Assembly: GCA_051546255.1 (NCBI GenBank)
Contig: CP128815.1
Location: 2,046,001-2,095,439, forward strand
DNA: 49,439 nucleotides
DNA from: Meyerozyma guilliermondii
Lineage: Eukaryota
Reading direction: 5' to 3'
Part shown: positions 19,015-46,473 of the stretch, piece by piece
How the letters are laid out: each line of letters opens with the position of its first letter
Numbering within the stretch: position 1 is the first letter of the stretch
Made by a program: the position numbers and the translations under genes
The notes under the pieces: model-generated
Database searches by the model: none
What the model saw: only the letters and a program-made list of their open reading frames with translations
Told to the model about the DNA's origin: nothing

Positions 19015-20307
19015 ATGAGTTACAGCTACAGACAAAACGGTGCAGAGCTTGACGACCCTTTGTTCATTGAAGAGTTCAAAAAGGCTTTGAAATTAGGCAA
19101 GGTTGCCAGGGCCGTGGACCTCGAGGAAGTAAGGCAACATGTCAAGTATCCCGAATATTTGTCACCTTTTAAGCTTGAGGATGAAGGTAAATACAATGCT
19201 TTTGCCAATCCTGATGGCGCCAAGAACGATAAGGGCCATTTGGGAGATCCTAGTTTCAAAAACTTGTTCTACAACAAGGACGCAAAGACATTTGATCTCT
19301 CTCCTAACTTTGGAACTGAGATCGATGGGATTCAATTGAGCAAGCTCGACGATGCAGGAAAGAACGACTTGGCACTTTACTTGGCTACTCGTGGTTTAGC
19401 TGTGTTCCATGACCAGGATTTCAGAGACAAGGGACCAGAATTTGCGAGAGAATTTGGTAGATATTTTGGACCGCTTCATATCCATCCTGTTGCCTACTCA
19501 ATTGATGGGTACCCTGAACTTTTGGTGACTTTCAGAAAGGAAGGTGGTCCAGAACGGTACGAGGGAGAATTTGCTAGCAGGACAACTCTGGTGGGTTGGC
19601 ACTCCGATATCAGTTTTGAAGAATACCCATCTTCTTTTTCGTTTTTCGTTGCGCTTGAAGCTCCCGAATCCGGCGGTGATACCGTTTATGCTGATACTCG
19701 AGAAGCTTATAGAAGACTTTCGCCCGAGTTTCAAAAGTTGCTTGAAGGGCTTACTGCCATCCACACCAATTACTACCAAAACAAGTTTTCTGCGTTAACC
19801 GGAGGGGTCGCTAGAGTCAAAAAGGACTACTTTACCGAGCACCCCTTGGTCAGAACCCATCCTGTTACAGGTGAAAAATCGCTCTTCTTTTCAAAAGGAT
19901 TTGTCAAGTCAATCAAGGGTCTTAAAGGACCCGAGTCGAGTGCTATACTCAACTTTTTGGATGCTCATATTAACAGCACCGACTTCCAGGTAAGAGCCCA
20001 ACACCGTGGAACTCTGGGAGCCACTGTGATTGCCTGGGATAATCGTATTGTGTTGCACACTGCCATTGCCGACTTTTTGCGTCACAAGACTGGTCACCGT
20101 CACCACTTTAGGATTACTGTTCTTGGCGAGAAGCCATATTTGGACAGGGAAACTAAGGAAGAGAAGGAAAATGGACAAAATGGACAAAATGGACATGAAA
20201 ATGGACACTCTAATGGACATGCCAATGGACATGCCAATGGACATGCGAATGGACATGCCAATGGACATGCGAATGGACATGCGAATGGAAGTTCCAATGG
20301 AAATTAA
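19015..20307 (+). CDS. Fe(II)/2-oxoglutarate sulfonate dioxygenase (TauD/Jlp1 family)
   Basis: WHSD (HxD), [25 protein letters not shown] distal His, terminal R; ATG at 19015. Confidence 0.93.
20170..20304 (+). repeat. Coding tandem repeat (AATGGACATGC(C/G)) encoding an NGH(A) tail
   Basis: Six 12-bp NGHA units plus [11 protein letters not shown] variants at the end of the TauD ORF. Confidence 0.95.
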
Positions 20308-20641
20308 AAACCATTTGAAATGGTCAATTGTCCAAACTAGTTACTTTTCAATTTATCCAAATCTTAGCTTTCCGTTTATGCAATTTCTTTCCTTTATTCA
20401 ATTCCATATTCAATTTATGCAATTCCTCGATCTATTCAGCGCCTCTAATTTTGAGTCTACAAAAAACTAGAATATCTTGATAAAATGAATCAAAAACTAA
20501 AATGTAGAAAGTTATAATAAATCAATTCCTTTCAATCTTTTTACACTTTTCAATCTATTCACCACCTTTCCACAATCCTACAACCTACCCATCTCACGTT
20601 TTCAGTTCATATTCCAAACTTTATTCAGTCTGCCCTTGCGT

Positions 20642-20734
20642 AATGTGGCACCTTTTTTTGCAATCGATCGTATTTCCTCTTTGGGACAGGTTGCAATTTC
20701 GCGCAGATGCCACACTGTGGCTGCGTCTATATAA
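20642..20734 (+). promoter_or_regulatory. TGTGGC sites (one inverted pair GCCACA-C-TGTGGC) plus TATA upstream of the sulfatase
   Basis: AATGTGGC 20642-49; GCCACACTGTGGC 20709-21; TATATAA 20728-34. Confidence 0.7.
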
Positions 20735-20761
20735 GTGCAGATCGCACCAAAATCGTACCCA

Positions 20762-22456
20762 ATGACAAAATCGAGACCAAACTTTCTCATCATTGTTGCT
20801 GACGACTTGGGGTTCACAGACTTGACTCCTTATGGAGGGGAGATCGATACTCCAAATTTGGACAGATTGAGTAAAGGCTGGAATACTCCAGGAACTGGAG
20901 CATTAGTTACCGACTTTCATACCGCTCCAACATGTTCTCCTACAAGATCAATGCTTTTTTCTGGAACCGATAACCACATTGCTGGGTTAGGTCAGATGGC
21001 AGAATTCATGAGAAGTGACCCAGATGCGTTTAAAGACAAACCAGGTTATGAAGGTTACTTGAATGATAGGGTCGCACCACTTCCTGAAATTCTTCAAGAC
21101 GACGGCTACTTTACTTGGATTTCTGGGAAATGGCATTTGGGTTTATTACCTGAATATTGGCCTGTGAAAAGAGGATTTGAAAAAGTCTTCACCTTGTTGC
21201 CTGGTGCTGGAAATCATTACAAGTACTTTCCTGGTTTGGGTGATACCAATTTCAAATTTTTACCACCTTTATTCTGTGAAGACGACAAGGATTTTAATCC
21301 TGAAACTCTTCCAGAAAATTTCTACTCCACTGACTATTATACAGACAAAGGAATTGAGTATATTGTGGACGAGTCTTTGAGAAAAGGAAGACCATTCTTT
21401 GGCTGTCTCACTTATACCGCTCCGCATTGGCCCTATCAGGCACCTGAAGAACGGGTGCAAAAATACCGAGGAAAATATGATAATGGTCCTGAAAACTTGA
21501 GGAAGACCAGATTGGAAGCAGCAATTAAATTGGGTATTGTCCCTGAAAATATCAAGCCTCATGTCATGACATCGCTCAAAAAAGACAGATGGAAAGATTT
21601 GAGCGACGAAGACCGTCGCTACCAAGCAAGAATCATGGAGACGTACGCTGCGATGGTGGATATTTTGGACGAAAATGTTGGAAAAGTGGTGAAGGTTTTG
21701 GAAGAAAGGGGAGAATTGGACAATACTTTCATTGCATTTATGTCAGATAATGGTGCAGAAGGAATGACGAGAGAGGCACTTCCATTGGGAGCTGCACCTA
21801 TCCAAAATTATATCAACACTTACTACAATAATTCCTACGAGAATATTGGCAAAAAGGACTCATTTGTCTTTTATGGTGACCAATGGGCTCAAGCCGCTAC
21901 CGCCCCATGGTACAAATATAAAGCGTGGGCGTCGGAAGGTGGAATCAGATGTCCGTTAATTGTTCATCATCCTCAAATTTTGCAGCCATCACCAGAGAAA
22001 AAAATCTACAACACATTCACAACCGTGATGGATATCTTGCCCACTGTTCTTGAATTAGCTGGAGTGGAGCATCCTGGATCGACTTACAAGGGCAGAAAAG
22101 TAGCAATTCCAAAAGGAAAATCGTGGGTATCGCATTTGGCTGGAAAAGACGAAAAAGTTCATCCTGATGGTACGGTTACAGGATGGGAGCTATTTGGCCA
22201 ACAGGCGGTTCGAAAGGACCCATACAAAGCTTTGAACATTCCTGCTCCTTATGGGTCTGGTGAGTGGGAGCTATACAATATTAGAGATGATCCTGGAGAA
22301 ACCACCGACTTGGCCAAAGATGAGCCAGAAAAACTTCAAGAGATGATTAACCATTGGTTGGAGTATGTTGCTGAAACTGGTATGATCGAGGTGAGGCACA
22401 TTTTCTACAACTTTAACGACATCCCCGAGGTCAAGTGGACTGTGTGTGAGGACTAA
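20762..22456 (+). CDS. Arylsulfatase (type I, formylglycine-dependent), no signal peptide
   Basis: RPNFLIIVADDLG, CSPTR (CxPxR), GKWHLG, YTAPHWP, SDNG, EGGIRCP, WELYNIRDDPGE; ATG at 20762. Confidence 0.94.
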   Translation: MTKSRPNFLIIVADDLGFTDLTPYGGEIDTPNLDRLSKGWNTPGTGALVTDFHTAPTCSPTRSMLFSGTDNHIAGLGQMAEFMRSDPDAFKDKPGYEGYLNDRVAPLPEILQDDGYFTWISGKWHLGLLPEYWPVKRGFEKVFTLLPGAGNHYKYFPGLGDTNFKFLPPLFCEDDKDFNPETLPENFYSTDYYTDKGIEYIVDESLRKGRPFFGCLTYTAPHWPYQAPEERVQKYRGKYDNGPENLRKTRLEAAIKLGIVPENIKPHVMTSLKKDRWKDLSDEDRRYQARIMETYAAMVDILDENVGKVVKVLEERGELDNTFIAFMSDNGAEGMTREALPLGAAPIQNYINTYYNNSYENIGKKDSFVFYGDQWAQAATAPWYKYKAWASEGGIRCPLIVHHPQILQPSPEKKIYNTFTTVMDILPTVLELAGVEHPGSTYKGRKVAIPKGKSWVSHLAGKDEKVHPDGTVTGWELFGQQAVRKDPYKALNIPAPYGSGEWELYNIRDDPGETTDLAKDEPEKLQEMINHWLEYVAETGMIEVRHIFYNFNDIPEVKWTVCED

Positions 22457-27013: not shown

Positions 27014-27988
27014 ATGGCTAGTTTCACAGAAAAATTCGGCAATCTCTACAACAACAATCTTTGTCCGTCCAAACCTAAATTCTTACCAGAGGACTATCCT
27101 GATTTAACAGGTAAAACTGTACTTGTAACAGGTGCAAATGCGGGAATTGGCTACGAAACCACCAAACTTCTCTTGGAAGCTGGTGCCCAAGTGTTGGTAG
27201 TTGTGAGAAGTTTGGAAAAAATGAAGGCTGCTGAGGACAAATTGAAACTGGAGGGTGCTGAAACTTCAAGATTGGAAATTTTTGAGGGTGATTTCAGCGA
27301 CTTGGCCTCTATTGGAAAATGTGGTAAAAACATTGTGGAAAAACAATCTGAAATCCATATTGTCATTCACAATGCCGGTGTGATGCTTCCTCCTCGTGGA
27401 TCTGTCACCAAACAGGACTACGACTTGCAATTGGGCGTCAATGCTTTGGCACCTTACTTGCTTCAAAAGTACCTTGACCCAGTAGTTTTAGCTGCTAAAA
27501 CTGACCAATTTGTGCCGCGGGTGATTTGGGTGTCCTCCAACTCGTACCTTTTTGCTCCTGGACCAAGGGGCTTGCTTCCTTATGAGGAGATCAACGACAA
27601 GGATGGAAAAAGTACGTTATTCGCACTTTATGGTCAGTCCAAAGTGGCGCTTAATTACAACGCTTTGATTTATGCGGAAAAGTACAAAGGAAAGATCATC
27701 ACTGCTGCCCTCAATCCAGGCGGGTTAAAAACAGATTTACAAAGAAACACTCTGGCTTTCGAACAGTGGTTGGCACGGCTGTTGTTGAAGGATCCGGTGT
27801 ATGGTTCGTATACGGAGCTCTATGCGGCGTTGAGCCCCGATATCACAGTGGAAAATAGCGGCTGTTTCGTGAGACCTTGGGGACAAATTGAAGAGTATTG
27901 TGGCTTTATTAAACAGGGGTTGAAGGATGGAACCGCTAAAAAGCTTAACGAGTGGACCGAAGAGCAAATTGCCCCATATTATCAGTGA
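27014..27988 (+). CDS. Short-chain dehydrogenase/reductase (retinol-dehydrogenase-like)
   Basis: TGANAGIG, HNAGVM, YGQSK (YxxxK), LNPGGLKTDLQR, PWG. Confidence 0.93.
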   Translation: MASFTEKFGNLYNNNLCPSKPKFLPEDYPDLTGKTVLVTGANAGIGYETTKLLLEAGAQVLVVVRSLEKMKAAEDKLKLEGAETSRLEIFEGDFSDLASIGKCGKNIVEKQSEIHIVIHNAGVMLPPRGSVTKQDYDLQLGVNALAPYLLQKYLDPVVLAAKTDQFVPRVIWVSSNSYLFAPGPRGLLPYEEINDKDGKSTLFALYGQSKVALNYNALIYAEKYKGKIITAALNPGGLKTDLQRNTLAFEQWLARLLLKDPVYGSYTELYAALSPDITVENSGCFVRPWGQIEEYCGFIKQGLKDGTAKKLNEWTEEQIAPYYQ

Positions 27989-28113
27989 GAAAGAGGAGTA
28001 GATCCATTCACTTCACTTTACTGTTTTCTACCCTTTTTTGTGGTTTTTGCTATTAATTTGCTAACTATTTGCTATCAATTACTTGAATTTTGCGGCTTAG
28101 TCCGTCTTGGCAT

Positions 28114-28204
28114 GCGGCTGTCCTAATCGGGGCTCACTTCCGAAGCCAGCAATTCCTTTCGCTCATCTCCTCACTACTACTCCATGGGCTAACCTTCACC
28201 CCTC
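28114..28204 (+). pseudogene. Truncated duplicate of the promoter and first 7 codons of the DUF4336-like gene at 36121
   Basis: 28114-28143 matches 36023-36052 at 27/30; 28182-28204 matches 36119-36141 at 22/23. ATG GGC TAA replaces ATG GGC TAC. Confidence 0.85.
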
Positions 28205-28719
28205 TCCACTTCCTCAAAACACTTGGAAGTTTTGCGGTCGCCATGAGTCCGTTCAAATCAAAGTTCAATCACTGGCCAACATAGGACCAGGATTCGATTT
28301 GGCATTGGTTTGGGGTTGTACGCCTCTCCAGCACTTATATCGGCAACAACAAGAGATACCGCAGTCGTTTCTGCGGACTTGGATTGAATACCTCAATCAC
28401 TGGGCCAGTTTGGATAATCCCTACTTACTCGGTAATATCTTATGTCCAGACATTTTTGTGGAACATTTAACTCTCAACTACATGTTAACAAAATGAGTCT
28501 ACTTGCCTAAATGGTATTGCTTGACTAACAATGAAGAACGTCACTTATTGCAAGAGGAAAAAGCAACCTCATGTCAAGTTGAGATAGCTTGTCGTGCCCA
28601 TGTGACTACTGCAAGGCTTCTTATCTAAATAATAATTTGCGAGGAATCTGGTGCAAAGATCTTGATAACGATACTTCCTTTTCGGGACACACGAGAATAT
28701 TGGATTTTTTACTCGCAAT

Positions 28720-30624
28720 ATGGTAGATGGTTCCGGTAACAAGGAAAGAAAGAAGAGAGGGAGTTACAGCAGAAGTGGTTGTTTTCAATGCAAATCTCGA
28801 AGAGTAAAGTGTGATGAACAAAAGCCAGAATGCTGGCAATGCCTGAGGCTTCGGAAAAGTTGTCTGTATCCAGAGTTGTCTAACGATGAAATAGGTGGTG
28901 GCAAGCAAAGTGCGAGGAAAAAGTCCAGAAGGAATATTGTCGAGAGGAGATTGACAGAATCCGGCTGGCAGGATCAAGTCGATGGTAGACGAGGAGAAAT
29001 AACCGAGACATTTGGTGAAGAGATTCCAGTTCCTAACAGGGAGGATGGTATCGCTATTTTCGGTACTGAACCAAAACCGCAAAATTTGAACGATACCTCC
29101 TCAATAGCCAATTTTGTTGGAGACTCTCTAGAAATTGGCGAGCGCAACCTCAGTTCTTTGGTTTCTGACTTGAACAAAATAGTAAACGACATGATGGTGG
29201 TGGATCATAATGTTAGCAGTGCCACTATTGAGAATGCCAGTGCCACTGAACTTACCGACACGTACGGTGGTACCGAGCCAATGAGCCATGCAAATGATTT
29301 ACCAAAAAACATACCGTTTGAGTATATCAAAGTGTGCAAAAATCAAGAGAGTATCTACCTTGAGGAATTTTACAATAACTTTGCAACCATCATTCAACCT
29401 TTCCACTCCTATGATGAGAAGATAGGCTACTTTTGCCCTGCTCGAGACATTCTTTTAGAGACAGCTTCCAGAGAGTCATTTCTACTATCAGCAATCATGG
29501 CTCAAGGTGCAAAAATGAGCTTCAAAAAACATCACCTCCAAGAAGACGATGAGGCATCTTACAAGTACTTGGTAACATGCTCCAAGCTCCTCGAACCAGC
29601 ATTAATAAAAGCCAGGCAAGATAAGAACTTGGTTAATAGCAAGATTGAAGCCGTTCTTTTAACAATCTTATTTTTGGTATCGTCGAATGCATCCATTCTG
29701 AACCTGGATTGGCGTTCACATTTGAGAGGAGCTAAGGAGTTACTCTTAAGTTACTCAACTCCAGACAGTGAACATTCGATTATCAAGTCAAAAATAATGG
29801 TGTTCTGCAAGCAATGGTTCATCTCATTCGAGATTTTGGCAGGTTTAAGTTCCAGGCGTGGTGGGACTTTGGCAACTCAACAGGAGATGAGTGTCATGTT
29901 GACGACTGATAATGTTCAGGAGATTGAAATTTTGAGAGAAATTGGAATCATACGACCGGATGGATTCAACTTGCTAATTGGTATGCACTACACTTGCTTG
30001 ACGCCAATACGAGGCCTCATTAAAATAGTAAAGCAAACCAGAGAAAGAGAAAATGAGACTTTACCAGACACCTTTGAGATCATTGACTTATTGAGTCAAT
30101 TCAATGAACAGATGAGCTTCGAGTTCATCGACCGCCGGTGTATCCTCAAGTCAGACTCTTTTGCTCAAACCGCAGGATCTTTATTGGGCGAGGTCACTAT
30201 TCGGAATGAAAAGCTTGTGATAAGTTGGATGGATATATGCCACCAAGCATATGTATTTGCGTCAATAGTGATACTCTTGAGGAAGGGTCTTCAATTTCCT
30301 AGCAAAGGAGCACATATACAAACGGTCAATCGAAAACTATTGGAATTGATTTCGTTTTTGGGACACTATCTGGAATTGTCTAACCATACCAAATGTTCAA
30401 TGATTCTTTTACAGTGGCCCATATTTGTGGCCGGGCTAAATTGTTTGGAAGACAAGGAAAAGCTATTGGTGATGAAATTTTTCAGAAACTCAGCTGATAT
30501 TGGCACTTCGAACTCTACCTATGCCTTGCGAAAACTTAACAAGTTTTGGAATCGTGCCACGGATGGAGACGAAAAGAACGATTATTTGGACAGTGGCAGT
30601 GACGTGGATGTATTTGCGTACTGA
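28720..30624 (+). CDS. Zn(II)2Cys6 transcription factor (Fungal_trans_2 type; Uga3/Lys14/Thi2-like architecture)
   Basis: SRSGCFQCKSRRVKCDEQKPECWQC…C.YP; WRSHLRGA and LQWPIFVAG motifs. Confidence 0.92.
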   Translation: MVDGSGNKERKKRGSYSRSGCFQCKSRRVKCDEQKPECWQCLRLRKSCLYPELSNDEIGGGKQSARKKSRRNIVERRLTESGWQDQVDGRRGEITETFGEEIPVPNREDGIAIFGTEPKPQNLNDTSSIANFVGDSLEIGERNLSSLVSDLNKIVNDMMVVDHNVSSATIENASATELTDTYGGTEPMSHANDLPKNIPFEYIKVCKNQESIYLEEFYNNFATIIQPFHSYDEKIGYFCPARDILLETASRESFLLSAIMAQGAKMSFKKHHLQEDDEASYKYLVTCSKLLEPALIKARQDKNLVNSKIEAVLLTILFLVSSNASILNLDWRSHLRGAKELLLSYSTPDSEHSIIKSKIMVFCKQWFISFEILAGLSSRRGGTLATQQEMSVMLTTDNVQEIEILREIGIIRPDGFNLLIGMHYTCLTPIRGLIKIVKQTRERENETLPDTFEIIDLLSQFNEQMSFEFIDRRCILKSDSFAQTAGSLLGEVTIRNEKLVISWMDICHQAYVFASIVILLRKGLQFPSKGAHIQTVNRKLLELISFLGHYLELSNHTKCSMILLQWPIFVAGLNCLEDKEKLLVMKFFRNSADIGTSNSTYALRKLNKFWNRATDGDEKNDYLDSGSDVDVFAY

Positions 30625-30902
30625 CGGGGATATTAAGGTCGTCTTCTGAGCTGTCTTCTGGTATATTTTCTATCACAGATCCGCTCAATTTGCAGCAAAA
30701 TTGCGAGCAATTTATCAGATCTGCATGCAAACTTAGATCGTTATCGCGAAACGGGCATCTCCAGATTGTGAACTCCATAGAGTTCGGCGCCTGATAAGTC
30801 AATCAGAGGATGTCCCGATCGGGTCAAACGATATGATCTTTAAATTTGATCAAGATTCTTAAACTCCCAAATTCAAGCACAAGTTTTCAATTTTCAATCA
30901 AC

Positions 30903-32540
30903 ATGATTAATGAATATCTCACAAAACTTGAAGTTCCTCATGAGAATAATGATATCCCGAATATTTTAAAAAACCCAGATTTGGAGCCAATGCCTCCTTC
31001 TAGACGAATCTGGGGTTTTTGGTCCTTCTTTGGCTACTGGGCGGTACCCAATATCACAGTTTGGACGTGGTCCACAGGTAGCGCTATGCTAGGTTTGGGC
31101 TTAAATATTCAACACACCATGGGAGCCCTAACGTTGGGGAATTTGTTGATTATATTGTATACCTGCTTGAACTCCACTATGGGCCTGAAATACCATATTG
31201 GGTACACTGTGTGTATGAGACTGATTTTTGGAATATATGGCTCTGGAATTGGTATTCTTATTCGGTTTATCTTGTCAGTGGTATTTTATGGATCGCAAAG
31301 TTGGTTGGGTGGTTTAGGGCTTGTTGTTACTTTTTCAAGTTTCAGCAAAGACTTTATGAACATGAAGAATACGTTTCCGGACAGCGTTGCCATGACCACC
31401 AGAGACTTTATTGGATTTTTTGTGTTTCTGGTAATTCAAATCTTTTTCTTGTTTATGAAACCCGAAAGGATGAACAAATACGTCAACTTGTCTTGTGCTG
31501 CTTGTGCTGCTGCATTTATAGCCATATTTGGTGTCTGCTTGAAAAAAAATCATGGTCCCGGAAGTCTATTTCATGAAGGGGTCAATATGAGCTCTTCGAA
31601 AACAGCTTGGATGTGGGTTTACTCTATGACTATATGGTATGGTGCATTATCTCCTGATGTGACGAATCAAAGCGATTTCTCAAGATTTGCGTCGTCCAAA
31701 AGGAAAATGTACTTGGGAATAATTACTTCTGTTTTGATAACGGGCACTTTTGTTCCTCTATTTGGACTTTTATGTGCTTCGGCCACCCAGGACTTATACG
31801 GTACAGCAATGTGGCTTCCAACCGATATTGTGCTTCAGTGGATGGGTGAAAACTATAATTCCGGATTACGAGCTGGTGCTTTTTTTCTTGGAATTGCCTT
31901 TGCATTCTCGCAACTTACTTTCAACGTACTAGCCATGGGATTTGCCGGGGGGATGGACTTGGCAGGAGTGTATCCAAGGTTCATTAACATTAGAAGGGGA
32001 GCCATCATAACTGCCTTACTATCATGGGTAGTACAGCCTTGGCGCTTCTATAATACTTCGTCTGTCTTTATGAACGTTATGAGTTCTTTTGGAGTTATAG
32101 TAACCCCAATCATAGCAATATTGATAGCGGATTTTATGGTTGTACGAAACTATACCCTTCCTTTGCTGGACCTTTACAGTACGCATCCCGATGGTACGTT
32201 TTATTTTCTTGGAGGTTTCAACCTTCGAGCTATCCTTGTGTGGCTTGCAGCTGCAGTTCCAGGAATACCAGGCTTGATTGGAAGAGTACAAGACGTCAAA
32301 ATTCCTGCTGGCTTGAACAACTTTTATTTCGGAAACATCATCTTTGGTTTCGTGTGCCCGTTCGTTCTCTACATCATAGTTTGCAAAGTGTTTCCCCCAA
32401 AAAACCTTGGAGTATGTGATGATCACGATTATTTTGAGAATTTTGATGTGAGTAACCAGGGAAGGATAGAGGTGATTGTCGGCTCTGAGGTTTCTAAGAG
32501 GGAATCGTTTTCCCCAAAGGAGAAGCAATTTGATGATTAG
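30903..32540 (+). CDS. NCS1-family permease, Thi7/Nrt1-like
   Basis: LEVP…KNPDLEP…WGFWSFFGYW, NQSDFSRF, FINIRRG, VQPW; about 12 TMs; first ATG at 30903. Confidence 0.92.
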   Translation: MINEYLTKLEVPHENNDIPNILKNPDLEPMPPSRRIWGFWSFFGYWAVPNITVWTWSTGSAMLGLGLNIQHTMGALTLGNLLIILYTCLNSTMGLKYHIGYTVCMRLIFGIYGSGIGILIRFILSVVFYGSQSWLGGLGLVVTFSSFSKDFMNMKNTFPDSVAMTTRDFIGFFVFLVIQIFFLFMKPERMNKYVNLSCAACAAAFIAIFGVCLKKNHGPGSLFHEGVNMSSSKTAWMWVYSMTIWYGALSPDVTNQSDFSRFASSKRKMYLGIITSVLITGTFVPLFGLLCASATQDLYGTAMWLPTDIVLQWMGENYNSGLRAGAFFLGIAFAFSQLTFNVLAMGFAGGMDLAGVYPRFINIRRGAIITALLSWVVQPWRFYNTSSVFMNVMSSFGVIVTPIIAILIADFMVVRNYTLPLLDLYSTHPDGTFYFLGGFNLRAILVWLAAAVPGIPGLIGRVQDVKIPAGLNNFYFGNIIFGFVCPFVLYIIVCKVFPPKNLGVCDDHDYFENFDVSNQGRIEVIVGSEVSKRESFSPKEKQFDD

Positions 32541-32804
32541 CAGATTTGCGGAACGGAGTGGATATATTTATGGTCCTCTTTATAGGCAAGGTTTTTATGC
32601 GTTTAATTCAGTGATAGATTTTGTATCGTGTTTATATATATTATAAAAGGGCAGAATAGTAAATAAGAGATTATATTTTAAACAGCTGAAGGAAGCATCG
32701 TTAATTCAAGAATATTAACTTGTATCCGGAATACTGATCCAATCCTCGGTTCGAGAAATATGATTAGAGAGTGACTTTTTAGAAATTCATATGTATATAA
32801 ACTG

Positions 32805-34250
32805 TCAATTTTGAAGCCTTTGTCTAGCATCGTCAAAGATTGGGAACCAGCGAGTATTGTAGACAAAGTATAATTCAGACAATGCCAAAACGAAAATTCC
32901 AACTCCAAGTCCGATCCAGAGCCCATACAAATCCAAGCCAAAGTAGAACGCTAGGATCAACGATAATGGTACAGCTATCAAGTAATAGATCATCAAGTTA
33001 AGCCTTGAGCCAATTGCTTGTCGTCCTTGTCCTCTAAGAAAACCAGCAAGAATGATGTTTGCGCAATCGTACAACTGATTGATACCCAAGATTGTGAGGA
33101 TTTTCAGACTGACAATTAAGACTCTTTTATCGGAAGTGAAGCATCTTCCAATTGCAAATCTGAAGAATATTAAAAGACCAGCGTCCAAGACACCCAAGAT
33201 TCCAGCGACAGTGTAAGTCACTCTGGTCAATCTTCGAAGTCCAGCTAGATCTTGCAGTCCTACACGATCAGCTATTTTGGTTGAAAGTGCAACAGAAACT
33301 CCAAAGGGAATCTGAAAAGCCATTGTTGCGGTTGTTGAAGCAATAGACTGAGCAGCGAGCGCTGTAGTTCCAAACCTTGAAGCGGCCAAAGTCAAAATTT
33401 CAAAGGCGATGAATTCTGATAGAAGCATAGCAGTTCCATTGATTGCAAGCCCGAACATGGAGGACCACTCACTTAATTTGAAAGCCTGTCTCAACTCTAG
33501 TCCAAACCAGCACTTTTTTCCATCGATGAATAGCACGTACAATAACAAAAAAAGGCTCATGAGCCAATAGCTTATAGCTATCGAGATAGGAGCTCCAACA
33601 AATCCGATTCCATATGACTTGTTCCACACCAATAAATAGTTTAAACCAACATTTATGGGTACCACCAAAAAGATAGAAAATTGCCCAGCACTGTAGATAC
33701 CCTGGCACTGCAAAAATCGTTTTCCTGTCTCAAATAGAATGTAACCGGGAGCTCCAAATGACAAGTATCTGAGGTACGTCTGTGCTAGCAAAAGTAGTTC
33801 TTTCTGTGGAACAATGAATTTGAGAATCGAAGCACTAAAGCACCAAAATAACAAAACAGGAATTGAAGTCACCAATAGCATGGCGCTGCCCCTTTGAAAA
33901 TACATACCCACAAGTCTATGGTTACCTGAACCGTAGGCTTGGGCACAAAACGTATCAAGACTAGTAGCCATACCATTAAAAATGGAATTTCCAACGTTAT
34001 AAGTAATTGTAGCTAGGGAAACAGCAGCCAATTCGTTCTTTCCCAACCCACCAACGGAAATTATGGCAAACACAGATATAGAATACTGTAAGAAAAGAGT
34101 AGTAATCAAGGGAAATGAAGCTTTACCCACAGCAACGAAATCTGAAATCAAAGCTGGGGAGTGAATATGACTTTCTGGATCTGTTGAGCCATATTTGTTT
34201 AAGCAGTTTTCAGAAATAAGGCTTGTGGAATCATCTGGAGAACTACTCAT
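32805..34250 (-). CDS. MATE-family efflux transporter (Erc1-like)
   Basis: LGKNELAAVSLA, LDTFCAQAYG, KRFLQCQG, EFIAFEIL, LRGQGRQAIG, GLWIG. Confidence 0.93.
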   Translation of the reverse strand: MSSSPDDSTSLISENCLNKYGSTDPESHIHSPALISDFVAVGKASFPLITTLFLQYSISVFAIISVGGLGKNELAAVSLATITYNVGNSIFNGMATSLDTFCAQAYGSGNHRLVGMYFQRGSAMLLVTSIPVLLFWCFSASILKFIVPQKELLLLAQTYLRYLSFGAPGYILFETGKRFLQCQGIYSAGQFSIFLVVPINVGLNYLLVWNKSYGIGFVGAPISIAISYWLMSLFLLLYVLFIDGKKCWFGLELRQAFKLSEWSSMFGLAINGTAMLLSEFIAFEILTLAASRFGTTALAAQSIASTTATMAFQIPFGVSVALSTKIADRVGLQDLAGLRRLTRVTYTVAGILGVLDAGLLIFFRFAIGRCFTSDKRVLIVSLKILTILGINQLYDCANIILAGFLRGQGRQAIGSRLNLMIYYLIAVPLSLILAFYFGLDLYGLWIGLGVGIFVLALSELYFVYNTRWFPIFDDARQRLQN

Positions 34251-34548
34251 TTCTCAATAAAAGATACTTGGAAGCAGGTGATATTATATTTCTGTGGCAT
34301 TTTGTTATTGTTAAGTTTCTCTCGTATCATAGAGTTGTTATCAGAAACGTTTTCTCGTATCATAAAGTTGTTATCAGTCTCCATCTTTCATCGGAACATG
34401 AGATTCTTATCTCACAATTGCGAGGAAATCAGATCTGATATCCGGGTAAATGTGAGAATGGTTGCAATTTCGAGCGAAAAATTGCGAACGACAAACTATA
34501 AAATGGGTGCAAAAAACCAGATTTTCAAGAAAACAGGTAGATCTGATC
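34251..34548. promoter_or_regulatory. 298-bp bidirectional promoter (MATE / ureohydrolase) with GATA sites, a 25-bp direct repeat and the palindrome ATCAGATCTGAT
   Basis: TCTCGTATCATA(G/A)AGTTGTTATCAG at 34320-44 and 34353-77; CTTATCT 34406; AATTGCGAGGAA 34416-27; palindrome 34428-39; TATAAAA ~34497. Confidence 0.7.
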
Positions 34549-35904
34549 ATGTTATCGAAACTTGCACTTGTTTCTTTGATTGGAGTCTCTGGGACTTACT
34601 CTAGCATTGTCCCTGTGGAACAAAAGCCTTTGATGTTGCAATGTGAACCAGTGGACATGGCAGGAAGAAACGCTTTGGTGAACTCTCGCAGTGGTAAAGA
34701 TGTGTCTGGAAAGTCATTTCTTGATCGCTACTACGGTTCGTTCTTTGATAACATCCAAATCGAATCAAACTCAATGGCTCCAGATGGAAGTTTGAAAAAG
34801 CAACCGGGCACTCTTGACTGGAGTTTACACTCCTTGATGGTCAATGATGAGTACGAGTATCCGGATAAGGATGACTTACGTGATATCAACGGAACGAACA
34901 CTTTGTATCGTGGAGGAGAGTTCGGAGGGTTGGTCACATTCGCTCATACTCCATACGCCAATTGCTATGATCCAGCGTTTTATGACAAGGAGGAATTTGA
35001 TATTGCGGTTGTAGGAGCTCCGTTTGACTCGGGAGTTTCATACAGACCCGGTGCAAGATTTGGACCTAGTGGAATCAGAATGGGTTCACGTCGATTGGCT
35101 CCTGCTTATTCAGTTTACAGAGATTCTTTCGACCCATACTCCAACTGGGCTAAGATAGTTGACTGTGGAGACCCTCCTGTGACTCCTTTGGACAACAGGG
35201 TTGCTTTGGATCAAATCTACCGGGCTAATCGTGCTATTGGTAGACACAAGACTACCCAGTCCAATCCCAACAAGTCCCCCAAAGTGTTTACACTTGGAGG
35301 TGACCATACAATCACCTTGCCAGCAATCAAAGCAGCATATGAGAATTTTGGACCAATCACCGTTATCCACTTTGACTCACACTTGGACACTTGGAATCCG
35401 TACTATTTTGGAGGAAATGTCACCGATTACCAGTCTGTGAACCACGGCACTTATCTTCACTGGGCTCATGAAAAGGGTCTCTTGACCAACCTGTCCATTC
35501 ATGCTGCTATCAGAGGACCATATCCTGGACCTAAAGATGTTCAACATGATGAAAAATGTGGTTTTGATCGCATCTTGGCAAGGGATATTGACAAAATTGG
35601 AACCCAAGGTATTATCAAGAAGATCAGAGACAGAGTGGGAAGCGGAGCTATCTATATCACAGTCGATGTAGACTCCATGGATCCTGCTAACACTCCTGCT
35701 TCTGGTACTGTGGAGCCTGGTGGGTGGACCTCAAGAGAGTTGCTTACTATTCTTGACGGCTTGGAGGGACTCAATGTTGTGGGAGGAGATGTGGTGGAGG
35801 TGTCCCCACCATTCGACACTGTTGCCGAGTTGACGTCTATCACTGCTGCCCAAGTTGCTGACCTGATCATTTCGTTGATGATTATCAAGGATGAGAAGAA
35901 CTGA
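34549..35904 (+). CDS. Ureohydrolase (agmatinase/guanidinobutyrase family) with predicted signal peptide
   Basis: GAPFD…RPGARFGPSGIR, GGDHT, HFDSHLD, DVDSMDP, GTVEPGG, DVVEVSP with all metal ligands intact; hydrophobic N-terminus from ATG 34549. Confidence 0.93.
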   Translation: MLSKLALVSLIGVSGTYSSIVPVEQKPLMLQCEPVDMAGRNALVNSRSGKDVSGKSFLDRYYGSFFDNIQIESNSMAPDGSLKKQPGTLDWSLHSLMVNDEYEYPDKDDLRDINGTNTLYRGGEFGGLVTFAHTPYANCYDPAFYDKEEFDIAVVGAPFDSGVSYRPGARFGPSGIRMGSRRLAPAYSVYRDSFDPYSNWAKIVDCGDPPVTPLDNRVALDQIYRANRAIGRHKTTQSNPNKSPKVFTLGGDHTITLPAIKAAYENFGPITVIHFDSHLDTWNPYYFGGNVTDYQSVNHGTYLHWAHEKGLLTNLSIHAAIRGPYPGPKDVQHDEKCGFDRILARDIDKIGTQGIIKKIRDRVGSGAIYITVDVDSMDPANTPASGTVEPGGWTSRELLTILDGLEGLNVVGGDVVEVSPPFDTVAELTSITAAQVADLIISLMIIKDEKN

Positions 35905-36120
35905 AGGGATCGTCGTCAGTGGCTTTTTTGCTACATCTATCTAGTTTTTATCTCAATTGAACTCATTTTTCAATTTCGGAAATATTTCGCGAAATCGAAT
36001 AAAATTAAGCTTTATCTGGTGCGCGGCTGTCCCAATCGGGGCTCGTTTCCGAGGACAAACTTCGCATCTCACTTCTCACTTCTCACGCCGTATTTCTCAT
36101 TTCACTCACTTTTCTTTACC

Positions 36121-36948
36121 ATGGGCTACCCTTCACCCCTCAAAGTTGCAACCAGAAAACTAAACGACGATGTGGTTATTTCCTCGTGTCCTTTTTCCAT
36201 AATGAACTTTATGCATCTTGGTGCAAGAATGGCTTGTATCAACAGTGATGGAAAAATTGTCATTTGGTCTCCGCTTCCATGGGGTCCTCATGTCATCGAA
36301 GCGCTTCAATTGCTCACGGGGAAGACTTCTACCGACGCCAATGACTATAATGTGACCCATATTGTCGTAGCTAATCTTCAACATGATATGGGAGTTCGCT
36401 CTGTCAAGCCCCAGTTTCCACACTCCAAAGTAATTGGTGCACACACTTTGCAATACGATTCGCTCGACTATAAGGTGAACAGCGACTTGGGGAACAAGCC
36501 GGTGAAATTACAAGATATTGCAGCCGCTAATGGCGAAACGGTTAGTGGATACGAAAACTTGGAGTTTGTCTATTTGAGTAAACACAAAAACCGGGAATTA
36601 GTGGTTTATGAGAACAAACACAAGGTTTTGTTTGAGTCAGATTTGCTTATTACCGTTGGAGACAGAGGACCAACTAACACTCTTGAGCAGTACTCTGAAG
36701 CTACTGGGTTTACTGACGGCTATAATCCCCACACTGGAAGAGCTCTCATTGGTAATTTTTTCTATCCTCAAGGATGGGTTTCGCAGTGGATTCAACGCAG
36801 AATTAACGGATTCAAGTTTCCAGAGGGCATTGAGGGATGCAAGGCAATATTGCTGTGGGATATTGAAACCATAGTTCCGAGCCACGGCAACTTGGTGGAA
36901 AAAAACTGTTCGGGAATATTGAAGCAGGTTTTTGGGTTCGAAAAGTGA
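36121..36948 (+). CDS. DUF4336-like protein (metallo-beta-lactamase-like fold)
   Basis: GARMA…IWSPLP, HIVVANLQH, ELVVY…LFESDLL, WDIETIVPSHG; first ATG at 36121. Confidence 0.78.
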   Translation: MGYPSPLKVATRKLNDDVVISSCPFSIMNFMHLGARMACINSDGKIVIWSPLPWGPHVIEALQLLTGKTSTDANDYNVTHIVVANLQHDMGVRSVKPQFPHSKVIGAHTLQYDSLDYKVNSDLGNKPVKLQDIAAANGETVSGYENLEFVYLSKHKNRELVVYENKHKVLFESDLLITVGDRGPTNTLEQYSEATGFTDGYNPHTGRALIGNFFYPQGWVSQWIQRRINGFKFPEGIEGCKAILLWDIETIVPSHGNLVEKNCSGILKQVFGFEK

Positions 36949-37292: not shown

Positions 37293-40200
37293 CTAGAATA
37301 AAATTCCAATGAAAAGTGCACTGGCAATGGCGAACGAGAAGGGCTGAATGGTGGCGGCTCCTCCGGTGGCGGAAGCATGGACTTGGGCTGCTACTGTTGG
37401 GGAAGATTGGGCGCCAGACGGGGTGACTGAAATCTGGGAGTTTTGAGAGTTTTGCTGGTTTGGTTGGTTTGGTTGGTTTGTGACTGAGCCAGTAGGACGA
37501 GCAGTACCTGCGACAGTAGCTGGGTTTGATTCTGAGGGCTGAGAACCGCCTGGAGAAGATGGTGAAGCTGGAGCGGAAGGAACGGAAGCTGGACTTGTTC
37601 CTGCTTTAGCTGGATTTTCTGAAGCTGGGCTTTCTTTGGCAGGGCTTTCCGTTTCAGGCAATGGACAGTAGGTGGTATAAGTGTATCGAGGCTTGGTGAC
37701 AGTGGTGACACCTGTGGTAACCTCGTTGGCTGTACACTTGCCGTTGGAGCAGCTGGTGATGGTGACAATTGTAGTGCTGATATCACTGACGGTTTTGGCT
37801 TTGGCAGTTTCAGCAGTGTCACATGGAACTGTGGTTGTGACTGTGATACCCTTGGTGGTGGTCACAATAACCTTGCTCGTAACAGATCCAGTTCCTTCAG
37901 GAACAACGGTGGTGTACTCGGTACAAGCCGTGCACAATGGTCCCAAGTCTGTCGTGTAAGTGGTCAAGTGGCCAGCAGAGTCGGTTGTAACGATAACATT
38001 ACCAGTCTCGGTAGACACAGATCCATCGGTCTTGGTTGTTACAAAGGTCGTTGGAACCTTGGTGCACTTAGGACAAACTGGACCAGTGCTGGTTGTGTAC
38101 GTCGTCAAGTGACCGCTTCCATCAGTGGTAACAATAACCTTTCCAGTGTCAGTTTCCGTCTTTCCATCAGAATTCGTGGTAACATAAGTTGTTGGGAACT
38201 CAGTACACTGAGGACAAACTGGTCCAGTGCTAGTGGTATAAGTTGTCAAGTGACCGCTTCCGTCAGTTGTAACAATAACCTTTCCATTGTCGGTTTCAGT
38301 CTTTCCGTCAGAGTTCGTGGTAACATATGTTGTTGGGAACTCGGTACACTGAGGACAAACTGGTCCAGTGCTAGTGGTATAAGTTGTCAAGTGACCGCTT
38401 CCGTCAGTTGTAACAATAACCTTTCCAGTGTCAGTTTCTGTTTGACCATTGGAGTTGGTGGTAACATATGTGGTGGGGAAATCAGTGCATTGTGGGCAGA
38501 CGGGACCAATGTCAGTGGTATACGTTGTCAAGTGTCCAGTGGTATCAGTGGTGACAATAACATTTCCGGTATCAGTCTCGGTATTGCCAGCTGAATTGGT
38601 CGTAACAAATGTTGTTGGGAACAGAGTACATTGAGGACAAACGGGACCAATATCAGTTGTGTAAGTGGTCAAGTGTCCAGTAGTATCAGTGGTGACAATG
38701 ACATTTCCAGTATCCGTCTCAGTCTTTCCGGCAGAATTGGTCGTCACAAAAGTAGTTGGGAACAGAGTGCACTGTGGGCAGACAGGACCAATATCAGTTG
38801 TGTAAGTGGTCAAGTGTCCAGTAGTATCAGTTGTGACGATCACATTTCCAGTGTCAGTCTCAGTCTTTCCATTCGAATTGGTCGTCACGAAAGTGGTTGG
38901 GAACAGAGTACATTGTGGGCAGACGGGTCCGATGTCAGTGGTATAAGTTGTCAAATGGCCAGTAGTATCGGTTGTGACAATAACATTTCCGGTATCAGTC
39001 TCAGTCTTGCCAGCTGAATTGGTCGTAACGAAAGTCGTTGGGAACAGAGTACATTGTGGGCATACGGGTCCAATATCGGTGGTGTAAGTCGTCAAGTGTC
39101 CAGTTGTGTCGGTGGTCACGATAACCTTACCAGTATCAGTTTCCGTCTTTCCAGCAGAATTGGTCGTCACAAAAGTAGTTGGGAACTCAGTGCATTGTGG
39201 GCAGACGGGACCAATGTCAGTGGTATAAGTTGTCAAGTGTCCAGTGGTATCAGTGGTGACAATAACATTTCCGGTATCAGTCTCGGTATTGCCAGCTGAA
39301 TTGGTCGTAACAAATGTTGTTGGGAACAGAGTACATTGTGGGCAGATAGGTCCAATGTCAGTAGTGTAAGTTGTCAGATGTCCTGTTGTGTCAGTTGTGA
39401 TAACTACCTTACCAGTGTCAGTTTCTGTCTTGCCGGCTGAATTAGTGGTAACGAATGTGGTAGGGAATTCAGTACACCCAACGCACTGACCAGATGATGC
39501 TTGTGATGAGGAAGTGGGATTGCTTGAAGAAGCCACGCTAGAAGACACAGGTCCAGTAGATGATACTTGACCTGATGAAGCTGGTGCACTTGAAGATGCT
39601 GGTCCAGAAGATGAAGCCGCGCCCGAGGAAGCTGGTCCTGTCGAAGGAGCCGCACTAGAAGAACCAGGAGCGCTTGAAGAAGCAGGTCCAGAAGATGAAA
39701 CTTGACTCGAAGAAGCCGATCCGCTCGAAGATGCTGCTCCTGAAGAGGCTGCGCTTGACGAAATAGGAGCACTCAAAGAGGCTGGTGCGCTAGATGAGGC
39801 TTGGCTTGAGAAAGCTTGGCTAGAAGAAACAGCACCCGAGGAAGCTGGAGAGCTGGAAGAAGCACCAGAAGAAGCAGAAGCACTAGATGATGCTGCACCA
39901 GATGAAGCAGGAGCATTAGATGACGCAGCACTAGATGAAGCGGCATTAGATGAAGCTGCACTAGATGCTGGTCCGGTAGAAGAAGCTTGGCTTGAAGAAG
40001 CAGCATTGGAAGATGCTGGAGCACTCGAGGAAGCGGGATCGCTTGAGGAAGCACCACTGGATGAAGCTGGGGCGCTAGACGAAGCAGCAGACGAAGCAGC
40101 AGATGAGGCAGCAGACGAAGCAGCAGATGAAGCAGCGGATGAAGCAGCGGATGAAGCAACAGATGAGGCAGCAGATGAGGCAGCAGATGAGGCAGCAGAT

Positions 40201-42545
40201 GAGGCAGCAGATGAGGCAGCAGATGAGGCAGCAGATGAGGCAGCAGATGAGGCAGCAGATGAAGCAACGCTCGATGAAGGAGCAGCACTAGATGAAGCAG
40301 GACTCGAAGAAACTGGAGCACTCGAAGAAGCAGCACTAGACGAACTTGGTGCGTTAGATGAAGCTTGACCAGATGAAACAGGAGCACTCGAGGAAGCAAC
40401 ACTTGAGGAAGCAACACTTGATGAAGCTGGCACACTTGAAGATGCTTGACTAGAAGATGTCGCACCAGACGAAGCAGCACTAGATGAAGCTGGTACACTC
40501 GAAGAGGCAGCGCTTGAAGATGCTGGGGCACTAGACGAAGCAGCATTGGAGGAAGCAGCACTGGAGGAAGCAGCATTCGAAGAGGCTTGACTCGATGAAG
40601 CAGCGCTAGAAGATGCTGGAGCACTAGAAGATGCTTGACTAGAAGAAGCAGCACTAGATGAAGCTGGTGCAGATGAAGATGCTGGAGCACTGGATGAAAC
40701 AGGGACGCTAGATGAGGCAGCACTGGATGATACTGGAGCACTAGAAGAAGCCGGAGCACTTGATGAAGCTGGAGCACTGGATGATGCGTTACTTGAAGCA
40801 GCGCTTGAAGCAGCGGCACTAGACGATGCCGGAGCACTTGAAGAGGCAGCACTTGAAGAAGCAGGACCAGACGAAGCAGCACTTGAAGGAGTAGCACTTG
40901 AAGAAACTGCACTAGATGAAGCTGGAGCACTGGATGAAGCTTGACTAGAAGAAACTGCACTAGATGAAGCAGAATTGGATGAAACTGGAGCACTAGAAGA
41001 TGCTTCACTTGAAGCAGCACTAGATGAAGCAGCACTGGAAGAAGCAGCACTCGAGGAGGCTGGAACACTAGATGAAGCAGCACCGGAAGAAGCAGCACTC
41101 GAGGAAGCGGCACTAGATGATGCTGGTGCACTTGAAGATCCTTGACTAGAAAGAGCAGCACTTGATGAAGCTGGAGCGCTAGATGAAGCAGCACTGGATG
41201 AAGCTGGAGCACTTGAAGAAGCTGGAGCACTGGATGAAGCAGCACTAGACGATGCTGGAGCACTAGAAGAAGCTTGACTAGAAGAAACTGCACTTGATGA
41301 AGCTGGAGCACTGGATGAAGCAGCACTGGATGAAGCAGCAGCACTCGAGGAAGCAGCACTGGATGAAGCAGCACTCGAGGAAGCAGCACTGGATGAAGCA
41401 GCACTTGAAGAAACTGCACTAGACGAAGCTGGAGCACTCGAGGAAGCAGCACTTGAGGAGGCAGCACTTGAGGAGGCAGCACTTGAAGAAGCACTGGATG
41501 AAACAGCACTAGAAGAAGCCGCTACTGATGAGGAAGTTTCATCGATTCCGGGTGGTGTTGGTAAAGGAGCACAAGCCATACATGCGGTTGGTTGGTTAGC
41601 ACCAGCTGGTACAGGTCCATTATATCTTATTCCACCATTGATAACAGTGGTAAGTATTCCTCCGAAATCAGTGGTGAACTTTTGAAAGTTGTTGCTGTTG
41701 TAACCTTTTCCAATATCAAAGCTGAAGGAAAAGATGAGTGTGGTGTACAATTTCAAGATACCAGTAGATGACGAGTACAGGAAACTGAAGATAGGAAGAC
41801 TGAGTCCCAAAGTGTTACCATTACCGAAACCAGCAATCTTGAAAGTCTGACTGAATGAAAGTGCTTCCACTCTCATACTGGAAGATGGACTACTCAAGTA
41901 GAATGTCTGATTAGGATCAACACTCAAAAGTGAATTTTGGATCCAAACGTTACTGTTTTCACCAATGTCAAAACAACCGCTTCCTTTGATGGCAGTGGTT
42001 TGATCATAAACTTCATTCCGCAAGCAAATTGTACCGGCATTATTAATTGTTCCACCAATTGAACCAAGGGTAACGAAACCACTGGACAATACTCTCTGTT
42101 GAAACACAATGAGACCGTTGTTGTTCCAGTTAAGCGAAGTGATCGACATTTGAGGAGTACCAACACTACCATCACCAGCGAGCCACATGTTTCCGTTGTT
42201 TGTGAAACGAAGACCAACAAGGTTGTAGTTTGGAGCAAGAAGGGACCGAGAAGAATCAAGGGAGATATCACCGTTGTTGGTGATACTATTAAGAACACCC
42301 AATAATTCCACCGTCAACCCAATCAAGTTGGAGTTACTACTTATGAAAAGTTGACCATCAACTTGAAGACTTCCCAAGAAGTTGGTGATAGCATTGTTAA
42401 TGATAGACCAGTATACACCGGGGTTAACCGTCGTTGTTCCAACGAATGCCGCTAAGGTTCCACGAGTTGTGGTATCCAGAGAGATGGTTATAGCGAAGGC
42501 TGAAGTAACCAGCAAAGCAGCTGTGACAAGCGATTGTAACCGCAT
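37293..42545 (-). CDS. Hyr1/Iff-family GPI-anchored cell-wall adhesin (1750 aa)
   Basis: Signal peptide; Hyphal_reg_CWP-like N-domain (NNGNMWL, WNNNGLI, INNAGTICL, IKGSGCF, GFGNGNTL); Ser/Ala stalk; Cys/Thr repeats; flocculin-t3 motif (TITSCSNGKC…YTTYCPL); hydrophobic GPI tail. Confidence 0.93.
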   Translation of the reverse strand: MRLQSLVTAALLVTSAFAITISLDTTTRGTLAAFVGTTTVNPGVYWSIINNAITNFLGSLQVDGQLFISSNSNLIGLTVELLGVLNSITNNGDISLDSSRSLLAPNYNLVGLRFTNNGNMWLAGDGSVGTPQMSITSLNWNNNGLIVFQQRVLSSGFVTLGSIGGTINNAGTICLRNEVYDQTTAIKGSGCFDIGENSNVWIQNSLLSVDPNQTFYLSSPSSSMRVEALSFSQTFKIAGFGNGNTLGLSLPIFSFLYSSSTGILKLYTTLIFSFSFDIGKGYNSNNFQKFTTDFGGILTTVINGGIRYNGPVPAGANQPTACMACAPLPTPPGIDETSSSVAASSSAVSSSASSSAASSSAASSSAASSSAPASSSAVSSSAASSSAASSSAASSSAASSSAAASSSAASSSAPASSSAVSSSQASSSAPASSSAASSSAPASSSAPASSSAASSSAPASSSAALSSQGSSSAPASSSAASSSAASSGAASSSVPASSSAASSSAASSSAASSEASSSAPVSSNSASSSAVSSSQASSSAPASSSAVSSSATPSSAASSGPASSSAASSSAPASSSAAASSAASSNASSSAPASSSAPASSSAPVSSSAASSSVPVSSSAPASSSAPASSSAASSSQASSSAPASSSAASSSQASSNAASSSAASSNAASSSAPASSSAASSSVPASSSAASSGATSSSQASSSVPASSSVASSSVASSSAPVSSGQASSNAPSSSSAASSSAPVSSSPASSSAAPSSSVASSAASSAASSAASSAASSAASSAASSAASSAASSVASSAASSAASSAASSAASSAASSAASSSAPASSSGASSSDPASSSAPASSNAASSSQASSTGPASSAASSNAASSSAASSNAPASSGAASSSASASSGASSSSPASSGAVSSSQAFSSQASSSAPASLSAPISSSAASSGAASSSGSASSSQVSSSGPASSSAPGSSSAAPSTGPASSGAASSSGPASSSAPASSGQVSSTGPVSSSVASSSNPTSSSQASSGQCVGCTEFPTTFVTTNSAGKTETDTGKVVITTDTTGHLTTYTTDIGPICPQCTLFPTTFVTTNSAGNTETDTGNVIVTTDTTGHLTTYTTDIGPVCPQCTEFPTTFVTTNSAGKTETDTGKVIVTTDTTGHLTTYTTDIGPVCPQCTLFPTTFVTTNSAGKTETDTGNVIVTTDTTGHLTTYTTDIGPVCPQCTLFPTTFVTTNSNGKTETDTGNVIVTTDTTGHLTTYTTDIGPVCPQCTLFPTTFVTTNSAGKTETDTGNVIVTTDTTGHLTTYTTDIGPVCPQCTLFPTTFVTTNSAGNTETDTGNVIVTTDTTGHLTTYTTDIGPVCPQCTDFPTTYVTTNSNGQTETDTGKVIVTTDGSGHLTTYTTSTGPVCPQCTEFPTTYVTTNSDGKTETDNGKVIVTTDGSGHLTTYTTSTGPVCPQCTEFPTTYVTTNSDGKTETDTGKVIVTTDGSGHLTTYTTSTGPVCPKCTKVPTTFVTTKTDGSVSTETGNVIVTTDSAGHLTTYTTDLGPLCTACTEYTTVVPEGTGSVTSKVIVTTTKGITVTTTVPCDTAETAKAKTVSDISTTIVTITSCSNGKCTANEVTTGVTTVTKPRYTYTTYCPLPETESPAKESPASENPAKAGTSPASVPSAPASPSSPGGSQPSESNPATVAGTARPTGSVTNQPNQPNQQNSQNSQISVTPSGAQSSPTVAAQVHASATGGAATIQPFSFAIASALFIGILF
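37935..39485 (-). repeat. 11 tandem 141-bp (47-aa) Hyr1-type repeats
   Basis: Unit CPQCTLFPTTFVTTNSAGKTETDTGNVIVTTDTTGHLTTYTTDIGPV counted 11 times. Confidence 0.92.
39490..41530 (-). repeat. Ser/Ala low-complexity coding repeats (15/18-bp units; purer 12-bp AASS array at ~40078-40265)
   Basis: ASSSA/PASSSA units; (GCAGCAGATGAG)n on the + strand. Confidence 0.92.
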
Positions 42546-46000: not shown

Positions 46001-46362
46001 TGTATATACATATCTATGGTATGAGCACCTCTTTTTAAAATCTTTTAAATCAAGATTTCTTGTAGTTTTTTAATCATGCTCTTAATATAGCTTTGTTCTT
46101 GACAAATTTTTGAGAAATCTTTAGCTCCGTTGCGTTGAATATGTGGTTCTCACATTTCAGCACATTCATCAATGAACTGGAAAGTGAAGAAAAGAGTTGC
46201 TGATTTGCACAATTGAACATTTTAACAAAGAAGATGTAAGTGGCTTTTCTTGATTGGGTCGATAATAACCAAAGTCAATTTAACTCTTAAAATTTCAACA
46301 TTATGAAAGCAAAAGATTACAAAAACCAAATTAAATCATAAGAAATTCAACACTCAATGTCT

Positions 46363-46446
46363 TGTTCCTTCCCCAGCTTCGTCTTATCACATTGTTAAAT
46401 GTGAAATTTGCAGCCACTATCCTGCACAATTCGCCGCATGCGAACT
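46363..46446 (+). repeat. Direct repeat copy 1 (5' flank of the LRR gene)
   Basis: TTCCCCAGCT…ACATTG.TAAATGTG.AATTTGCAGCCA..ATCCTGCACA…CACAATTC.CCGCATGCGAACT shared with 48775-48863. Confidence 0.88.
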
Positions 46447-46473
46447 CAAAAGTTAAAATCAAACTCAAGGCTA

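Follow-up and report, generated by a model that had tools for sequence, protein, structure and literature searches.

A four-gene block near the right end of contig C1 of Meyerozyma guilliermondii is bracketed by two copies of the promoter and first codons of the DUF4336-like gene that lies on its right. Most likely this repeat was left by a one-time old rearrangement, in a cluster with a known history of transfer between yeasts, and does not signal that a mobile element is active here. The reading that best accounts for the locus, given a probability of about 0.5, is a single old relocation of the block by break repair with template switching, duplicating ~90-120 bp. The window, that is the whole stretch of DNA that was analysed (49,439 nucleotides), forms the right end of contig C1 and finishes in an 8-bp telomere-type repeat, from which the locus lies 13-21 kb; its genes were translated with table 12. 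An earlier note, made from the letters of the window, had proposed that the repeat is an insertion scar. That idea is plausible and is supported in part, with the qualification that mobilisation can most likely be explained without special machinery.

The duplication consists of two islands, all on the forward strand. Island 1 of the left copy (28114-28143) matches 36023-36052, upstream of the intact DUF4336-like gene, with 27/30 identities and three mismatches, whereas island 2 (28182-28204), which holds the start context and first seven codons of that gene, matches its intact start at 36119-36141 at 22 of 23 positions. Order and orientation are the same in the two copies, which stand 7,818 bp apart; the islands combined are 49/53 identical (92%), and the longest perfect run common to both copies is shorter than 15 bp. 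Alignment of 27989-28204 with 35905-36141 gave z = 7 to 12 over 300 dinucleotide shuffles, none of which (0/300) reached the score in any of three scorings. Both matches hold as the earlier note had described them, coordinates, order and orientation included. Its account of the left copy holds as well: this copy reads Met-Gly-stop, with TAA at codon 3, and homology to the right gene runs through codon 7 and is then lost, the following 515 bp aligning at shuffle level (z -1.7 to 1.1). A genome-wide dispersed repeat is ruled out, each island having exactly two sites in the 10.66-Mb genome with up to three mismatches allowed (reversed-pattern control, 0). Chance resemblance and convergent binding sites were rejected on two grounds: island 2 lies in coding sequence, and the islands keep their order.

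Nothing significant was found outside the islands, and the demonstrable duplicated unit is therefore put at only 91 bp on the left and 119 bp on the right. The left pyrimidine-rich spacer (28144-28181, +, 38 bp) has diverged from its 66-bp counterpart on the right, their alignment being at shuffle level (z 0.07-0.86) and the best cheap-gap version of it needing six gaps. Upstream of island 1, a T-rich match had been offered as a weaker extension of the repeat; this sequence, too, is at shuffle level (z 0.1-1.3), and the extension is not confirmed. What remains is the configuration expected of insertion with target duplication, a direct repeat at both ends with one copy a truncated target gene. 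Of the ~100-200 bp of duplicated target that had been suggested, the repeat at both ends thus stands, and no length beyond 91-119 bp is demonstrable. Island 1 is a promoter-like element with the pattern CGG-N10-CGG-N9-CCG, whose inverted CGG-N9-CCG part belongs to the broad class of sites recognised by Zn2Cys6 dimers; the full pattern is not enriched genome-wide (33 sites vs 27 in the control).

The left flank of the block is a short-chain dehydrogenase/reductase (SDR) gene (27014-27988, +; PF00106), which has a 71% paralogue near the end of C7, and the right flank is the intact DUF4336-like gene (36121-36948, +; 275 aa). The DUF4336 label is borne out as a weak profile match (E = 0.0035) and falls short of a formal assignment, since the score against PF14234 is 17 bits, under the Pfam cut-off of 28.5 bits; all six members of the DUF alignment match DUF4336 weakly (best E 0.00032), and a search for a relative of solved structure with this alignment found none. 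Two distant paralogues of the gene lie on C5 and C6. The duplicated promoter was not found at either of these or behind the SDR paralogue on C7, where the matches were to coding sequence only. The seven codons of the left stub match the DUF start of the window and of Meyerozyma sp. JA9, and not that of the related proteins P0005 or P0006, which indicates from the sequence that the relic belongs to the right gene's own lineage rather than to an ancient paralogue.

Several features of the surroundings may be recorded here. From the hydrolase stop to the DUF start (35905-36120), an open stretch of 72 codons keeps the frame of both genes; P0282, a protein of another strain, uses a different frame at the T-run between the two, so a read-through fusion looks not to be conserved. 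Elsewhere in the window are a Hyr/Iff-type adhesin gene (37293-42545, -; 1,750 aa; it has tandem units of 141 bp and a long tract of Ser/Ala), next to the telomere a leucine-rich-repeat gene spread over several frames (46300-48636), several paralogues of which lie at the C7 end, and adjacent genes for a TauD-family dioxygenase and a sulfatase (19015-22456), a possible sulfur-scavenging pair.

Between the stub and the first gene of the block lies a unique region (28205-28719, +) in which neither DNA alignment nor hmmsearch --max detected a DUF remnant; nor did hmmsearch --max, with a profile of six DUF proteins in six frames, find one in the left spacer. The block itself encodes a Zn2Cys6 transcription factor (28720-30624, +; PF00172 and PF11951, with the Priceomyces relative PRCAT00004347), an NCS1-family permease (30903-32540, +; PF02133, TIGR00800 above cut-off), a MATE-family exporter (32805-34250, -; PF01554, TIGR00797 above cut-off) and an arginase-family ureohydrolase of agmatinase/guanidinobutyrase-like type (34549-35904, +; PF00491, below the bacterial agmatinase cut-offs). 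From this content of regulator, importer, exporter and guanidino-compound hydrolase, the block is most likely a nitrogen-scavenging module, the nature of the substrate being suggested by the enzyme family. In the M. guilliermondii ATCC 6260 annotation the hydrolase is in two pieces (PGUG_01199 and PGUG_01200), and that of Debaryomyces fabryi is likewise in two adjacent pieces; each may reflect a real break or an assembly error.

Three copies of an 11-bp motif stand upstream of the regulator (28636-28646, +), the permease (30700-30710) and the MATE/hydrolase pair (34417-34427). Its frequency, 3 in the window vs 0.12 expected and 31 in the genome, where the reversed control has 6, is that of a pattern chosen after these sites had been seen. 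The motif fits co-regulation of the block as a candidate regulatory site that is distinct from the duplicated island and not confined to the cluster. The promoter shared by the MATE and hydrolase genes also carries a tandem pair of 33-bp copies that are 76% alike and contain TTATC sites (34302-34367); GATA-type sites would fit nitrogen regulation.

Transposons and integrative elements find no support as the source of the block. No transposase, integrase or reverse transcriptase was found among the 24 ORFs scanned, and all four ORFs of the block are metabolic or regulatory. No terminal inverted repeats or LTRs mark its ends among the 25 longest of 52 inverted pairs, and no LTR-like repeats do so among the 20 largest direct-repeat families listed. 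The block is single-copy in the genome apart from a 68-bp paralogue match. The impression that neither a transposase nor terminal repeats are visible was thus confirmed within that scope. Nothing points to the circular intermediate that had been proposed as an alternative route, and the locus provides no evidence of a new mobile element.

The arrangement SDR-block-DUF appears from sequence comparison to be old. In Meyerozyma sp. JA9 the SDR (JA9_000773), ureohydrolase (000769), DUF (JA9_000768) and MATE genes are all on the same 1,354,640-bp contig, with four locus tags separating the SDR from the DUF4336-like gene, and both flanking proteins are 81% identical to those of the window; the block was therefore in place before the split that this identity reflects. 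Three Logan contig sizes (12290, 12372 and 12487) are found repeatedly, in the SDR, the hydrolase and the DUF clusters. Identities across relatives were 94 vs 98% for the hydrolase, 81 vs 93.5% for the SDR and 81 vs 96% for the DUF protein, so that distances rise in step in the block and its flanks, the pattern that vertical descent predicts. In a quick tree of 14 rows the hydrolase groups with other CUG-clade yeasts (SH-aLRT 95), the own-genome C7 paralogue, on an implausibly long branch, being ignored. Block GC3 (0.38-0.44) is inside the window range (0.32-0.54), and codon use is ordinary. The comparison of composition thus gave no foreign signal and the gene tree is native, so that a horizontally acquired island is unsupported and the suggestion of a recent or horizontal insertion is not upheld. 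Within the species complex, M. caribbica is placed nearer to C. carpophila than to M. guilliermondii in the excerpted text of PMC5844296, and no genome-wide divergence figure was found in such excerpts of the literature on the complex. An assembly labelled Naganishia cerealis, a basidiomycete, carries consecutive tags (P0245, P0285, P0291 and P0304) for proteins at least 90% identical to the SDR, regulator, permease and MATE protein, most likely through contamination or mislabelling.

In the favoured scenario of relocation, a nitrogen-scavenging module would have been placed once into a subtelomeric SDR-DUF junction, before the M. guilliermondii and JA9 lineages split, by break repair with template switching instead of a transposase. 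Copying would have halted at DUF codon 7, switched to the block and come back ~90-120 bp upstream, leaving an intact DUF gene at the right and a promoter with a seven-codon stub at the left. The spacer would later have decayed, with the islands held above neutral expectation by weak selection on sequence upstream of the regulator or by short gene conversion. The proposed repair step has known parallels: template-switch and break-induced insertions are not transposon events, duplicate tens to hundreds of base pairs and leave one gene intact. The likeness to the present locus is in the flanking duplication; the junction microhomologies are here unreadable after decay. In favour of relocation, the repeat is unique to the two ends of the block and its homology stops sharply at codon 7. 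The module also occurs with other flanks in Region A of wine yeast, considered below, and two Logan proteins may record an empty site.

The latter are an SDR protein (P0011, 68%) and a DUF protein (P0006, 58%). Each is a single-member Logan protein encoded on a 4,470-bp contig. Such a contig is too short for the 7.8-kb block and would thus indirectly hint at SDR-DUF adjacency without it. Here the shared contig is inferred from size alone, and the SDR tree leaves the orthology of P0011 ambiguous. Equal sizes do mark shared contigs in the three recurrent cases given above, and one chance coincidence of size (2,280 bp) is also visible among the Logan contigs compared. Two other Logan contigs, one of 120,744 bp and one of 9,889 bp, have the permease, MATE and hydrolase at 91-95%; neither an SDR nor a DUF is listed for contigs of either size, which may reflect another neighbourhood, loss or missed genes. 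A contig from a sister species was sought by an exact-motif scan of metagenomes (0 found), by a protein scan of prokaryote genomes (0/72 candidates) and by a protein scan of metagenomes, in which 14/172 candidates were all distant (best full-length, 37%) and none was such a contig. For the ancestral order SDR-DUF4336 put forward earlier, there is accordingly this one indirect hint, the two 4,470-bp contigs.

The main difficulty for relocation lies in what has survived of the left copy. When the right copy was frozen in simulation and the left evolved neutrally, both islands were kept in 257/400 runs at 0.2 changes per site, in 23/400 at 0.3 and in 0/400 at 0.4, 0.5 and 0.7. The neutral distance to JA9 is probably large, since SDR paralogues at 71% protein identity share only 25/86 identical fourfold sites, the sole calibration of that distance. 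A neutral left copy would not, then, have kept both islands, and the conservation of codons 4-7 behind a stop also counts against relocation. A structured non-coding RNA was ruled out: a match search of Rfam and folding gave no RNA family or stable fold that would explain the conservation, with one chance-level Rfam match elsewhere in the block and fold z-scores of -0.67 to 0.49. An old scar evolving neutrally does not account for islands that are 92% identical around a spacer at shuffle level, and a young copy does not do so either. The mosaic could come from intermediate age with a ~120 bp unit, from weak selection on the left islands or from short conversion.

Since islands this similar are not expected of a neutral scar of that age, the repeat may be younger than the arrival of the block. 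As a tentative possibility, a local event that came afterwards in the M. guilliermondii line, either tandem amplification of the block with the DUF 5' end followed by collapse, or the copying of a DUF promoter patch before the regulator, would reconcile 49/53 identity with an arrangement that predates the split marked by 81% flank-protein identity, and such events are common near telomeres, where this locus lies. It would require two non-homologous events, however, and a young copy should retain its spacer: in a crude model that penalises one long indel, only 0-1 of 1000 simulated spacers were as degraded as that observed, in each of eight settings. The left copy might instead have been a whole DUF gene later deleted to codon 7, either from an SDR-DUF-block order with rightward duplication or from a tandem pair split by the block. 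The similar stop-to-ATG gaps (196 bp from the SDR to the left ATG, 217 bp from the hydrolase to the right one) suit this history, as does the 4,470-bp hint, which fits an SDR-DUF pair whatever lies beyond. It is nevertheless unlikely, given that the 515 bp past codon 7 hold no remnant by DNA alignment or profile search and that one DUF lineage per genome type was found in the species complex.

Quite improbable is the idea that the scar was co-opted: the duplicated DUF promoter would drive a long transcript, laden with uORFs of which the first is Met-Gly-stop, through the promoter of the regulator and so control the cluster, with the whole set a recurrently relocating yeast cassette; if true, such co-option would explain why two islands outlived their spacer. 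That the block is a current or recent mobile cassette, forming a circle via the repeat like Region B of wine yeast, must be held very improbable indeed. Direct repeats do flank it, the module has moved horizontally into wine yeast within Region A, and two Logan genomes have three of its genes on the 120,744- and 9,889-bp contigs described above. Against this, there is one block copy per genome, at the same site in JA9, no mobility gene and no long perfect run common to the two repeats, and pop-in of a circle would need a donor already carrying the DUF 5' end. A single old relocation thus stays the preferred account and, if the scar reading holds, the locus is a record of a metabolic cluster reaching a subtelomere without mobile-element machinery.

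No description of the four genes as a unit, of the repeat or of the link to Region A set out here was found in the open-licence literature. What is gained is that link and the unexpectedly well-kept islands; the module itself is of known kind. Region B of S. cerevisiae resembles the block as a small metabolic cluster with Zn-cluster regulators and without a transposase, and its circular replication is reported in the excerpted text of PMC7212421; its genes are unrelated to those of the block, however, and the block shows no variation in copy number or position in the genomes examined. The window enzyme shares the PF00491 ureohydrolase family with K. lactis Gbu1 and C. albicans Agt1/Gbu1. Excerpts of PMC4149782 describe the Region A ureohydrolase gene as the orthologue of KlGbu1, a guanidinobutyrase, and excerpts of PMC7439472 show that C. 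albicans uses agmatine and guanidinobutyrate by means of enzymes of this type. The clade of the window enzyme is apart from the Lachancea, C. auris and own-genome C2 enzymes, and its substrate is here predicted from sequence.

The closest parallel is with Region A of wine S. cerevisiae, which is described, in the excerpted texts of PMC7212421 and PMC4149782, as subtelomeric and horizontally acquired from Torulaspora. Table 1 of PMC7212421 gives a fungal transcription factor, arginase, MATE and NCS1 transporter as the adjacent ORFs A6-A9 in strain EC1118, the same four classes that are adjacent in the block. The window hydrolase is 68% identical to a protein cluster containing EC1118_1F14_0089 (A7) and T. 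delbrueckii TDEL_0G04880; A7 is thus linked by sequence, whereas A6, A8 and A9 are matched by gene class only. The Region A order (TF-hydrolase-MATE-NCS1) and its flanks differ from those of the window, and Region A came from Torulaspora by horizontal transfer, whereas the window copy groups with CUG-clade yeasts. As in the window, the Priceomyces carsonii relatives of the regulator and the hydrolase differ by three locus tags, and the best SDR match in that species is on another contig. Region A and Priceomyces together support the view that the block is a unit found elsewhere with other flanks. The connection of a CUG-clade cluster with the poorly understood A6-A9 suggests that these four genes form a guanidino-nitrogen unit much more ancient than the transfer from Torulaspora.
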